64,000 nucleotides of DNA from Planctomycetota bacterium (GCA_047638675.1 JBLIML010000001.1:13822-77821); one strand, 5' to 3'. Counted from the first letter of the stretch, positions 10,677-19,845 are shown. The notes: generated from the letters alone by a model not told the origin. Numbers and translations are program-made.

Positions 10677-11897
10677 ATGAAAGTTTACAAAGTTGGCGGT
10701 GCTATACGCGATAAATTGCTAGGCCTGGCAGTTAAGGATCAGGACTGGGTTGTGGTTGGTAGCACGGCTCAACAACTGATTGATTTAGGTTATAAACCCA
10801 TCGGCAAAGATTTTCCGGTCTTTCTTCACCCCGATAGCAAGGAAGAATACGCCCTCGCCCGCACCGAAAGGAAAACCGCTCCTGGCTACAAGGGCTTCTC
10901 CTTTGACACAGATAAAAATGTCACTCTTGAAGAAGACCTGCAACGACGGGATCTGACAATCAACGCCCTCGCGGAAGACGAGCAATCCAATATTATTGAT
11001 TGCTTTAATGGTCGGGAGGATCTTGAGGCAGGTATTTTACGGCACATCTCTCCCGCTTTTACCGAAGATCCCCTGCGTGTTTTACGTGTGGCGCGTTTCG
11101 CCGCACGTTTCAATTTTCGGGTTGCCGATGAGACCAAAGTGCTAATGAAGGTTATCAGTGAATCGGGTGAACTCGACACGCTTGTTGCTGAACGTGTCTG
11201 GACCGAACTTGAACGTGCACTTTGTGAAGCCTTCCCTGTGCGTTTCTTCGAAGTACTTCGAGAATGCGGTGCGCTGAAACGGGTTTTCCCGGAAATAGAT
11301 CGTCTGTTCGGTATTCCCCAACCAGAAAAGCATCATCCTGAAATCGATTGCGGCATACACACTTTGATGGTCGTGGAACAGGCCTGCAAATTAACAAGCG
11401 ATCCCCTTATACGTTTCGCTGCACTGGTACATGATTTGGGGAAAGGCACGACACCTGAAGAACAATGGCCCAGCCACCGGGGTCATGAGGAACGAAGTGT
11501 CGGCTTAATTGAAAAAATGTGTGATCGCTATCGTATACCAAAAAGTTACCGAGGTCTGGCCGTCATTGTTGCCAGGCATCACCTTGATTGCCACCGTATC
11601 GCAGAAATGCGCCCGGACACTATATTGAGAAAGCTCGAGGCGATGGATGCTTTTCGCAGGCCGGATCGTTTTGAGCAGTTCCTCATCGCCTGTGAGGCAG
11701 ATATTCGGGGTCGCAAGGGATTCGAAGATCGAGATTACCCGCAAGCCGCGTATCTAAAAAGCGCGCTGGAAGCCGCGAGCGCTATAGATACGAGCAGTGT
11801 GCAAAAAGAGGCCATGAGTGGACCGGAAATCGCGCAGGTAATTGGCAAACTAAGAGTGGCTGCGATAGAAGAAGTTAGACGGCTGGCGAATAAGTAA
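10677..11897 (+). CDS. cca: Multifunctional CCA-adding tRNA nucleotidyltransferase with HD phosphohydrolase domain.
   Basis: 406 aa. N-terminal MKVYKVGGAIRDKLLG polymerase-beta-type head and an HD domain (HTLMV...HDLGK). Confidence 0.9.
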   Translation: MKVYKVGGAIRDKLLGLAVKDQDWVVVGSTAQQLIDLGYKPIGKDFPVFLHPDSKEEYALARTERKTAPGYKGFSFDTDKNVTLEEDLQRRDLTINALAEDEQSNIIDCFNGREDLEAGILRHISPAFTEDPLRVLRVARFAARFNFRVADETKVLMKVISESGELDTLVAERVWTELERALCEAFPVRFFEVLRECGALKRVFPEIDRLFGIPQPEKHHPEIDCGIHTLMVVEQACKLTSDPLIRFAALVHDLGKGTTPEEQWPSHRGHEERSVGLIEKMCDRYRIPKSYRGLAVIVARHHLDCHRIAEMRPDTILRKLEAMDAFRRPDRFEQFLIACEADIRGRKGFEDRDYPQAAYLKSALEAASAIDTSSVQKEAMSGPEIAQVIGKLRVAAIEEVRRLANK

Positions 11898-11933
11898 AGT
11901 TCCCCGCTGCAAGCAAACAAGGCGACAATCCTA

Positions 11934-12320
11934 TTGTCGCCCTGAGCAACTAGACCTGCCGCCCTGAGCATCGTCGAAGGGTCTCGGGACGGAGGCATTG
12001 TTCACAAGATCTCTCCACTTCGGTCGAGATGACAGGTTCTTTTATTTCACCCTAAGCAAAGAGTATTGTCACCCTGAGCAAGTGACCTTGTCACCCTGAG
12101 CATCTAACCTTGTCACCCTGAGCATCGTCGAAGGGTCTCGGGACGGAGGCGGGGCTCGACATATCTCTCCACTTCGGTCGAGATGACAGGTTCTTTTTTT
12201 TCACCCTAAGCAAAGAGTTTTGTCACCCTGAGCAAGTGACCTTGTCACCCTGAGCAACGCCGAAGGGTCTCGGAGCGGAGGCGCCGCTCGCAAGATCTCT
12301 TGAACGCCGCTTGGTCTCTG
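11934..12320. repeat. Composite tandem-repeat array. About 9 copies of a 14-bp motif TGTCACCCTGAGCA (partly as 22-bp tandem units) interleaved with 2.5 copies of an ~75-bp module.
   Basis: The motif occurs at about 11934, 11956, 12046, 12066, 12088, 12110, 12198, 12219 and 12243. The module TCGTCGAAGGGTCTCGGGACGGAGGC...ATCTCTCCACTTCGGTCGAGATGACAGGTTCTTTT is repeated at 11970-12045 and 12124-12197, with a partial copy at 12258-12320. Each 22-bp unit carries a GTCAC...GTGAC hairpin. The array lies between convergent cca and uppP. Confidence 0.8.
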
Positions 12321-12401
12321 TTCCAGACTCGACCCTACCACTCACTTCCATGTGAGCGTCCCGACGCGTTTCTACCACCTGGCTCCTGCATGCAAGTAAT
12401 A

Positions 12402-13193
12402 CTAATAAATAGCAAATATTGCCAGTCCCAGAACCACGCGATAAATGACATAAGGCAGCATACCCGTGCGATCCAGCAATCTAAGAAAATAATGGATCGA
12501 TAACCAGGCAGTAACAAAGGCCACAGCGCTGACTGCGAGGACCGAAATCCAGTCAATATTCAGTTGCTGCGAAGATAACTTAAAGGTCTCGTAAGCTGTG
12601 GCCAGAATAATGACCGGTACTGCCAGTAAAAAAGAAAAGCGCGATGCAGCTTGTCGATTCATCCCTAACATAAGACCGGCAGTTATTGTGATGCCCGAAC
12701 GGGAAGTGCCTGGGATAATAGCGATTGCCTGGGCGACACCAATAAGCAAAGCATCTCTCCATCCAAGCTGATCCCGCTCACGTGTCTGCGCACCAAATTT
12801 ATCGGCCCACCACAGCATTAGACCAAAGCCAATCGATGCAGAAGCAATGACCTGCGGATCACGTAAGGTTGTCGCGACAAAGTCATGCAAAAACAGACCT
12901 GAGAGACCAACGGGTATCGTCGCGACCATTAAATACCAGAGCAAATAATCCTTTTTCTGATTTGCCGGATCGAATGAAGCAATCCATCCCGATGTCATGC
13001 TCTGCAGGTCTTTACGAAAATACAATAACACGGCGCCCAAACTACCGGCATGCACGGCAACGTCATAGACAATTCCCTGATCATTCCAGCCCATCAGGGC
13101 GGGCAAAAGAATCAGGTGCGCCGAACTGGAGATTGGCAGAAATTCAGTAAGGCCCTGTATTATCCCAAGTATTATTAAGTGTGCTAACTCCAA
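12402..13193 (-). CDS. uppP: Undecaprenyl-diphosphate phosphatase.
   Basis: 263 aa. MELAHLIILGIIQGLTEFLPISSSAHL N-terminus and the PGxSRSG motif of the BacA/UppP family. Confidence 0.9.
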   Translation of the reverse strand: MELAHLIILGIIQGLTEFLPISSSAHLILLPALMGWNDQGIVYDVAVHAGSLGAVLLYFRKDLQSMTSGWIASFDPANQKKDYLLWYLMVATIPVGLSGLFLHDFVATTLRDPQVIASASIGFGLMLWWADKFGAQTRERDQLGWRDALLIGVAQAIAIIPGTSRSGITITAGLMLGMNRQAASRFSFLLAVPVIILATAYETFKLSSQQLNIDWISVLAVSAVAFVTAWLSIHYFLRLLDRTGMLPYVIYRVVLGLAIFAIY

Positions 13194-19768: not shown

Positions 19769-19845
19769 GGCTATGTAGCTCAGCTGGTTAGAGCGCGGCA
19801 TTCATAATGCTGAGGTCGGTGGTTCAAGTCCACCCATAGCCACCA
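19769..19845 (+). tRNA. tRNA-Met (elongator, anticodon CAU), 77 nt with an encoded CCA.
   Basis: Cloverleaf: acceptor GGCTATG/CATAGCC, D-arm GCTCAGCTGGTTAGAGC, anticodon loop TTCATAA, T-arm GGTGGTTCAAGTCCACC. Close to E. coli elongator tRNA-Met. Confidence 0.9.

Follow-up and report, generated by a model that had tools for sequence, protein, structure and literature searches.

An array of tagged hairpin repeats between cca and uppP

The 64,000-nt stretch of Planctomycetota DNA analysed here (GCA_047638675.1, JBLIML010000001.1:13822-77821; hereafter the window) carries two convergent genes, cca (10677-11897, + strand; NF008137, E = 6.6e-190) and uppP (12402-13193, - strand; NF001393, E = 6.7e-107), whose stop codons are separated by a 504-bp spacer. 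This spacer is occupied by an array of short, uniformly oriented repeats built on a 14-mer, TGTCACCCTGAGCA. Scanning the window with the 14-mer at up to two mismatches recovers nine copies, all on the + strand between 11935 and 12256 (five exact, one with a single mismatch and three with two), and none elsewhere in the 64 kb; 0.39 copies would be expected by chance and none of 100 shuffles reaches nine. Degenerate scans of the window for the half-site, 3′ arm and right arm described below likewise match at the array locus only. The copies are spaced at 22 bp in short runs, and Tandem Repeats Finder reports both a 154-bp unit present 2.1 times at 11934-12258 (90% matches) and 22-bp sub-arrays at 12066-12126 and 12196-12257. 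A second sequence, GGGTCTCGGGACGGAGGC, occurs at 11979 and 12133 with a variant at 12265, and a third, CTCTCCACTTCGGTCGAGATGACAGG, at 12011 and 12165, giving 2.5 copies of a longer module. G+C content is 54.8% in the array as against 44.4% in the window. The array is a real feature, well beyond chance, and the picture drawn in an earlier note from the sequence alone, of about nine 14-mer copies in some 390 bp, 22-bp tandem units and 2.5 long modules between convergent cca and uppP, is borne out by these searches and by the gene profiles.

Two kinds of unit make up the array. The half-site unit consists of the 14-mer and eight variable bases, while the long module (about 80 bp) consists of the same 14-mer followed by TCGTCGAAGGGTCTCGGGACGGAGGC, 14 variable bases and CTCTCCACTTCGGTCGAGATGACAGG. 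As the reverse complement of CTCTCCACTTCGGTCGAGATGACAGG, i.e. GTCATCTCGACCGAAGTGGAGAG, repeats the start of the module itself in diverged form, the long module is an imperfect inverted pair with TGTC...GACA outermost. Modules 1 and 2 read TGTC-hairpin ... inverted hairpin-GACA, that is, as head-to-head dimers without a gene between the two hairpins, and the same dimer architecture is seen at three further loci (L022, L046 and L169).

The order along the + strand is a half-site, long module 1, a T-run, three half-sites, long module 2, a T-run, two half-sites and an incomplete long module 3. The first half-site unit (11935..11956) combines TGTCGCCCTGAGCA, with one mismatch, and the 8-nt spacer ACTAGACC; the flank right after the cca stop pairs with this degenerate copy in an inverted repeat, CAAGGCGACAAT/ATTGTCGCCCTG (11918..11944; 12-nt arms, 92% complementary), which is terminator-like on the - strand only. 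Long module 1 (11957..12036) comprises the full tagged hairpin TGCCGCCCTGAGCATCGTCGAAGGGTCTC (11957-11985), a middle part and the inverted, diverged second hairpin arm (12011-12036). It is followed by the T-rich run TTCTTTTATTT (12037..12047), which overlaps the start of the next unit, a degenerate distal half-site with two mismatches, TTTCACCCTAAGCA plus AAGAGTAT (12045..12066). Two exact units come next, TGTCACCCTGAGCA plus AGTGACCT (12067..12088) and TGTCACCCTGAGCA plus TCTAACCT (12089..12110), and then long module 2 (12111..12190), again with hairpin (12111-12139), middle part and inverted arm (12165-12190). Beyond it lie the T-rich run TTCTTTTTTTT (12191..12201), a distal unit with the same degenerate TTTCACCCTAAGCA, now plus AAGAGTTT (12199..12220), so that both half-site runs begin with this variant, and an exact unit, TGTCACCCTGAGCA plus AGTGACCT (12221..12242). 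Long module 3 (12243..12320), the third copy in the repeat search at 81%, has a full tagged hairpin with the loop AACGC (12243-12271) and a left extension in the variant form GGGTCTCGGAGCGGAGGC; its similarity to modules 1 and 2 stops after CAAGATCTCT, and the inverted right arm is missing.

Superimposed on this order is a higher-order tandem duplication on the + strand (11934..12241), with two 154-nt copies (11934-12087 and 12088-12241) that are 89% identical in the repeat search and each hold half-sites and one long module. The 154-bp and 22-bp units speak for growth by local tandem duplication, in line with the expansion proposed earlier, and the description as a cluster of oriented hairpin repeats resembling repetitive extragenic palindromes (REPs) and bacterial interspersed mosaic elements (BIMEs) is also apt. 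The GTCAC-N9-GTGAC hairpin that had been ascribed to each 22-bp unit exists in two of them only (12068-12086 and 12222-12240).

A hairpin family with a covarying stem

The three full copies in the window read TG(T/C)C-(A/G)CCCT...AGGGT, each then followed by C. They belong to a family of hairpins with an unpaired 5′ tag (T/C)GTC, a 5-bp stem A-CCCT/AGGG-T, an interior GAGC-N2-3-G-N-CGA and a 3′ C. Family-wide, the three bases after the 4-bp stem are mostly TCT, also CGA and TGA; the first of these is the T that pairs with A7, and this position varies. Among 53 hairpins picked by the fixed tag and interior only, the 4-bp stems are fully complementary in 50, and they are of many types, e.g. CCCT/AGGG, TTCT/AGAA, TGCT/AGCA, CGCT/AGCG and TGGT/ACCA.

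The 5-bp helix was evaluated in an alignment of 41 diverse family members (A2). Its cells are paired in 88.8% of cases, as against 67.8% in shuffles; double-sided changes affect 46 cells, as against 11.9 in shuffles; and the covariation score is 0.601, as against 0.03-0.155 when the partners are slid. Invariant in the 41 sequences are G4, T5 and C6 of the tag, together with G12, A13, G14, C15, G19, C21, G22 and A23 of the interior, and A7 is more than 90% conserved. The stem covariation spans at least 10 phyla as well as phage contigs. Judged from these alignments, the family hairpin is real, with its support coming from covariation and not from folding energy. Within the interior, tandem G.A pairs are conceivable for G12A13/G22A23, and a small loop, in many cases GNA, may be closed by G14-C21 and C15-G19; such pairing would make a continuous hairpin best suited to single-stranded DNA.

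The family is widely dispersed. An exact scan with GTCACCCTGAGC-NNNGN-CGAAGGGT returned nine stretches from eight unrelated IMG/VR viral contigs, and in one of these contigs (L012 and L018) tandem half-copies again precede a full hairpin. A search for two 12-mers separated by 7-11 nt, run on one genome for each GTDB species, lists at least 120 loci, to which about 20 viral contigs with 12-mer arrays can be added; here and below, statements on the arrays of other genomes refer to the matches listed. The array-bearing taxa include Eremiobacterota, Bacteroidota (Dyadobacter, Niastella and others), Dehalococcoidia, Nitrospirota, Gemmatimonadota, Clostridia, Planctomycetota, Actinomycetota, a Porticoccaceae gammaproteobacterium and a lineage of the candidate phyla radiation. 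Contrary to what had been supposed, the repeat is thus not clade-specific.

This distribution also bears on whether the array might have arisen just once, through local duplication or slippage of a unique sequence that belongs to no family. Such an origin would fit the confinement of the motif to the array locus within the 64-kb window, and a metagenome scan for the lineage-specific extension CGAAGGGTCTCGGNNCGGAGGC gave only five chance coding-sequence matches, in a collection that did not hold the source contig. Since unrelated genomes share the same 12-mer, hairpin and array architecture at 120 loci at least, as do about 20 viral contigs, we consider it exceedingly improbable. The earlier note had treated occurrence at a single place as the sign of a simple duplication; the motif does have a single locus in these 64 kb, but the family is dispersed across bacteria, so that this test misses the point.

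Hairpins bracketing small GIY-YIG genes

Clustering of about 1,600 open reading frames (ORFs) near arrays at about 130 loci yielded as recurrent neighbours only generic families and a small GIY-YIG protein. The latter occurs near arrays in six loci, and no other neighbour family is found in more than seven, the largest being a generic ABC-type ATPase. At four loci (L053, L132, L098 and L102) the GIY-YIG gene has a forward hairpin immediately ahead of its start and an inverted one at its stop or beyond, with the tags and half-site arrays facing outward. The encoded proteins are single-domain members of PF01541, 95-115 aa in length, and are related to PDB 1ywl and 1zg2 (UPF0213).

A reverse test, started from 7,955 GIY-YIG homologues, leads back to the same hairpins. 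At least 18 of the best 120 of these homologues have C-terminal extensions that translate the hairpin (with tails such as HPSTSSG, PFDSAQGD, TLRQAQGD and VSLSGVED), and family hairpins lie beside the gene in all five homologues for which the DNA was examined, which come from four phyla (Mucilaginibacter, Nitrospinae, Kiritimatiellales, Chryseobacterium and Candidatus Cybelea). At the Mucilaginibacter locus (L169; Mucilaginibacter sp. McL0603, CP188251.1), with its 96-aa gene at 801-1091, four head-to-head dimers stand in tandem next to the gene and recur about every 113 bp, the same higher-order architecture as in the window. In a Nitrospinae metagenome-assembled genome (MAG), a hairpin-flanked ssn-like GIY-YIG gene (L170 and L171, 631-1212) stands between ruvA and ruvB and looks like an insertion into a conserved operon. 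A scan of viral contigs with the GIY-YIG profile gave three loci only. On the viral contigs L146 (about 1285-1345) and L147 (about 1310-1420 and 1780-1889), GIY-YIG genes have a longer form of the hairpin at their flanks, GTCATGGTGAGGAGC-[extra stem-loop]-GTCTCGAACCA, which may tie the GAGC-type interior to a longer three-part structure.

Single-domain GIY-YIG proteins of this kind have a described counterpart in the Ssn nucleases (CDD cd10448), which bind the NTS (CGTCATTCCCGCGMAVGCGGGAATCYRG) and SRM hairpin repeats solely as single-stranded DNA and on one strand (Chenal et al. 2025, Nat Commun, PMC11893778). According to the same study, an SRM lies near 71% of ssn genes and on both sides of 42%; cleavage occurs a few nucleotides 5′ of the hairpin; the three bases before the palindrome matter for cutting; the C after the palindrome is the base most critical for SsnA binding; and SsnA cuts even when the hairpin halves are on separate strands. 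In Neisseria meningitidis the Ssn system restricts transformation by NTS-bearing single-stranded DNA (PMC11893778).

The presence of a GIY-YIG gene at these loci also weighs on the most familiar alternative, a classical REP/BIME (REPIN) cluster mobilised by a REP-associated tyrosine transposase (RAYT). Clustered, oriented hairpins and head-to-head dimers are what BIMEs and REPINs display, and Chenal et al. draw the analogy of the Ssn system to REP/BIME-RAYT, and to insertion sequence (IS) elements, themselves (PMC11893778). The tag, however, is TGTC and not GTAG, and no Y1-transposase family is among the recurrent neighbours of the approximately 130 loci, where GIY-YIG is found instead; moreover, Di Nocera et al. 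(2013) keep GTAG repeats apart from CGTC/TGTC repeats and found no transposase for the latter (PMC3733652). An origin through RAYT activity is accordingly very unlikely.

Polar half-site arrays with a period of about 21 bp

The half-site is a 5′ half-copy of the hairpin, comprising tag, 5′ arm and GAGC followed by some 8-9 nt, and half-sites are stacked upstream of one full hairpin. The full hairpin stands at the 3′ end in 123 of 146 tight arrays (120 loci). Spacing peaks at 21 bp: exact units number 20 at 19 bp, 46 at 20 bp, 72 at 21 bp, 29 at 22 bp and 15 at 23 bp, and with degenerate units the figure for 21 bp is 95, few lying at 17-18 or 24-26 bp. A search of viral contigs for tandem 3′ halves gave five matches, all of them unrelated iteron-like repeats, as against 19 loci for a comparable 5′ pattern. 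Among phage sequences, iteron-like repeats containing GTCGAAGGGT (e.g. in GTCGAAGGGTGCAAAA units) were noted at L149 1883-1914, L150 4561-4592 and L151 8130-8157; they lie outside the hairpin family.

Even within one genome the spacers between half-sites differ from locus to locus, and they often copy the flank upstream of their own array, so that the arrays appear to arise in situ and not to be carried as a unit. With up to one mismatch, the distal spacer equals the loop prefix plus the array's own flank in 47% of arrays, as against 17% when another array's flank is used. Degeneracy is greater in the distal-most units than in those of the middle (1.86 versus 0.82 mismatches), a comparison that is biased by the stopping rule. 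The simplest reading of these sequences would be a repeated in-situ duplication of about 21 nt, reaching from about -9 to +12 relative to the G of GTCA, beside an intact hairpin.

A regular period of 21 ± 1 bp across genomes (22 bp in the window), with a 12-14-mer kept while the spacers diverge, could also suggest an iteron- or centromere-like set of double-stranded sites for a DNA-binding protein, with a phasing of two helical turns. This is distinctly unlikely. The polar arrays nearly always end in one full hairpin with a covarying stem, which implies a folded single strand; the spacers are copies of the local flank; no gene for a DNA-binding protein is enriched nearby; and SsnA does not bind double-stranded DNA (PMC11893778).

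Half-site arrays can also persist inside intact genes, as at L140 (2406-3926, + strand), where a 506-aa ORF for an NtrC-like response regulator contains an in-frame 21-nt half-site array. The array is translated as GHPEQFS about five times and then HPERSEGS, within the linker between the receiver and AAA+ domains.

Insertion, strain variation and transcription at the locus

Relatives whose uppP is 72-76% identical have the same gene order (methyltransferase, hypothetical, uppP, then convergent cca, epimerase and SLT). In three of them the ends of cca and uppP are separated by +7, +6 and -10 nt, and since the two genes abut in these relatives of the same synteny, the 504-bp spacer is an insertion in the source lineage. 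A fourth relative has a gap of 184 nt with a different hairpin repeat; this family, with TTCCCAAGCTCCGCGTGGGAA and GATTCCCACGGAGACCGTGGGAACC, occupies L177 3296-3479. The junction is apparently permissive, a place where several repeat families can land.

Relative to an NCBI/JGI contig of the same population, single-nucleotide polymorphisms (SNPs) are present at 11901 (T/A) and 11959 (C/T), the latter changing TGCCGCC to TGTCGCC, nearer the consensus tag. Short-read contigs of other samples (L002-L005, L007 and L009) end in or beside the array, at window positions 12351, 12269 and 11991, and the array is spanned by some assemblies only. Assemblies break at the repeat, and MAGs may under-represent it.

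The position between convergent genes had led the earlier note to consider a bidirectional terminator or a small structured RNA, and an RNA-level element, be it an intrinsic terminator (possibly bidirectional), a stabiliser of the 3′ untranslated region or a structured RNA, would also agree with the T-runs that follow the right arm of modules 1 and 2 on the + strand, with terminator-like hairpins called on the - strand at 11944-11918 and 12086-12068, and with the frequent location of REPs downstream of ORFs that is described by Di Nocera et al. (PMC3733652). However, the abutting or overlapping genes of the three relatives indicate that no spacer element is needed there, which argues against a conserved or required terminator. 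By the criterion used (a G+C-rich stem of at least 5 bp, a short loop and a U-run within 0-2 nt) the array yields no intrinsic terminator call on the + strand. The T-runs (12037-12047 and 12191-12201) start only past the 6-nt GACAGG behind the nearest local stem, and T-runs are absent after homologous modules in other genomes and hence no feature of the family. RNA and DNA folding of the spacer, modules and units is not clearly beyond shuffles (best z-score -1.98, equalled by 3 of 100 shuffles). Rfam at E<=10 gives only two meaningless eukaryotic matches in the array region, and at the gathering threshold the sole match in the whole window is a distant tRNA gene (19769-19842, + strand; 71.9 bits) that is unrelated to the array. 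Finally, SsnA, the only protein partner characterised for repeats of this type, did not bind RNA (PMC11893778). Taken together, an element acting as RNA is unlikely, and neither of the earlier suggestions is upheld. Any effect on the transcription of cca or uppP would be secondary, with an exapted terminator role for cca being possible.

Mechanistic interpretation

We consider that the 504-bp spacer is probably an inserted, non-autonomous cluster, without a gene, of TGTC-tagged hairpin repeats of Ssn type whose 5′ half-copies are reiterated. The modules of the window would correspond to the two hairpins of the hairpin-gene-hairpin layout minus the gene, forming REPIN-like head-to-head dimers, the 22-bp units would be 5′ half-copies piled upstream of each full hairpin, and one whole block would later have been duplicated as the 154-bp unit. 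The hairpins are predicted to fold in transient single-stranded DNA, e.g. during replication, repair or DNA uptake, and to be, or to have formerly been, substrates of an Ssn-type nuclease encoded elsewhere in the genome.

Several observations weigh against this interpretation. The single hairpin folds at about -2.5 kcal/mol as DNA, with z-scores near zero, no better than shuffles. About 125 of the 130 array loci have no GIY-YIG gene within a few kilobases, and the 64-kb window itself has no GIY-YIG ORF, which leaves any cognate nuclease of the source organism putative. The published SRM pattern, HGTCWYN(0-2)YYVSBRHN(0-5)WNVSBRGN(0-2)RNCYNB, matched the NTS positive control but has no match in the window and none among 223 GAGC-type hairpins, so that membership in the Ssn system is argued from architecture and from the link to the gene, outside the published definition. 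A simple duplication of flank plus half-site leaves about half of the arrays unexplained. In the few other samples, moreover, the spacer has the same length of 504 bp and differs by SNPs only, which gives no sign of ongoing array activity.

As for the half-site arrays, they lie across the point 5′ of the tag at which SsnA cuts, which suggests that they are by-products at the cutting zone. They could have grown by repeated in-situ duplication of the segment around the cutting place of the nuclease, and candidate routes from a nick to a 21-nt duplication are strand-displacement resynthesis with flap retention and hairpin-induced slippage. We tentatively propose, as a possibility with less than even prospects, that they are scars of repeated hairpin-directed cleavage by Ssn-type nucleases and subsequent repair, with about 21 nt gained per cycle; each cycle would duplicate the cut site and the 5′ arm and place the new unit next to the intact hairpin. 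As a variant, the stacked 5′ halves may be functional, each pairing in turn with the single 3′ arm to offer several alternative cut sites, a reading for which the cutting by SsnA of halves on separate strands leaves room.

The spread and function of REP-like hairpin repeats have been open questions for decades, and Ssn nucleases were tied to one family of them only in 2025. Three points emerge from the present locus. There is a hairpin subtype that escapes the published search pattern in spite of its presence in phage contigs and at least 10 phyla; there is evidence that this GAGC-type subtype brackets the same kind of GIY-YIG gene; and there is a stereotyped structure, presumably a by-product, namely the polar half-site arrays of about 21 bp, exactly at the reported cutting position of the nuclease. 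Together these offer a concrete, testable handle on the in-vivo activity and proliferation of such elements. If the arrays are indeed cleavage scars, they would be a readable in-vivo record of nuclease activity and would expose how REP-like hairpins seed and multiply, including in-frame inside genes. For annotation it matters that the repeats break short-read assemblies, that they give rise to spurious ORFs and to C-terminal extensions, and that they can lie in-frame within real genes.

Comparison with known systems

Three candidates were rejected. A CRISPR array typically has 24-48-bp repeats, unique spacers of similar size and usually a leader and cas genes, whereas the repeat here is only 12-14 bp long with 8-nt spacers derived from the local flank. 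The sequence does not fit the core of a hammerhead or other ribozyme, and there is no inverted partner array or cargo in the 64 kb that would go with a Tn7/Mu-like transposon end with 22-bp sites.

The ends of IS200/IS605 elements and of the gene-less palindrome-associated transposable elements (PATEs) are comparable in having sub-terminal hairpins that are read on one strand as single-stranded DNA and cut at a distance on the 5′ side. Their enzyme is a Y1 transposase, and the ends have a direct, not inverted, orientation on the active strand; we know of no half-site arrays at IS200/IS605 ends. The REP/BIME/REPIN-RAYT systems share short tagged hairpins, inverted doublets, clusters with reiterated flanking DNA and a proposed single dedicated enzyme acting on folded single-stranded DNA. 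They differ in that the REP tag is GTAG and the enzyme is of the HUH/Y1 type, as against the TGTC tag of the window, and in that REP sequences are species-specific whereas the window motif is nearly identical across phyla.

Comparable, too, is the superfamily of CGTC-tagged REPs (including dRS3 and RPE-4/6), often with TGTC and also with CCTC as the tag, which are mostly head-to-head dimers (Di Nocera et al. 2013, PMC3733652). Likenesses are the terminal tag (TGTC in the window), dimers with outward tags, occurrence in several phyla and intergenic sites between convergent or unidirectional genes. The four families CGTC-1 to -4 have an 8-9-bp stem, a 4-5-nt loop and a CCA tail, and grouped elements are reported to be rare (PMC3733652). 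The window hairpin departs from this stem, loop and tail, having five Watson-Crick pairs, a 12-nt interior and a CTC tail; reading it with nine 'pairs' would need tandem G.A mismatches, followed by GC pairs that enclose a loop of 2-3 nt. Half-copies are not mentioned in that paper in a term-level search of its text.

The last comparison is with the Ssn/SRM system. The window subtype has a 5-bp stem and an invariant interior GAGC...GNCGA of 11-12 nt, as opposed to the 8-9-bp stem of ATTCCCGCG type in SRM; the 64-kb window is without an ssn gene; and tandem 5′ half-site arrays are not mentioned in PMC11893778 in a term-level search of its text. A literature search by sequence strings and repeat-encoded peptides returned primers and noise only, and both the GAGC-type subtype and the half-site arrays appear to be undescribed. 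What the two have in common is an oriented hairpin whose palindrome is preceded on its 5′ side by an unpaired (C/T)GTC(A) tag and followed by a C, intergenic clusters, inverted copies around a single-domain GIY-YIG gene of about 95 aa, and a presence in many phyla.

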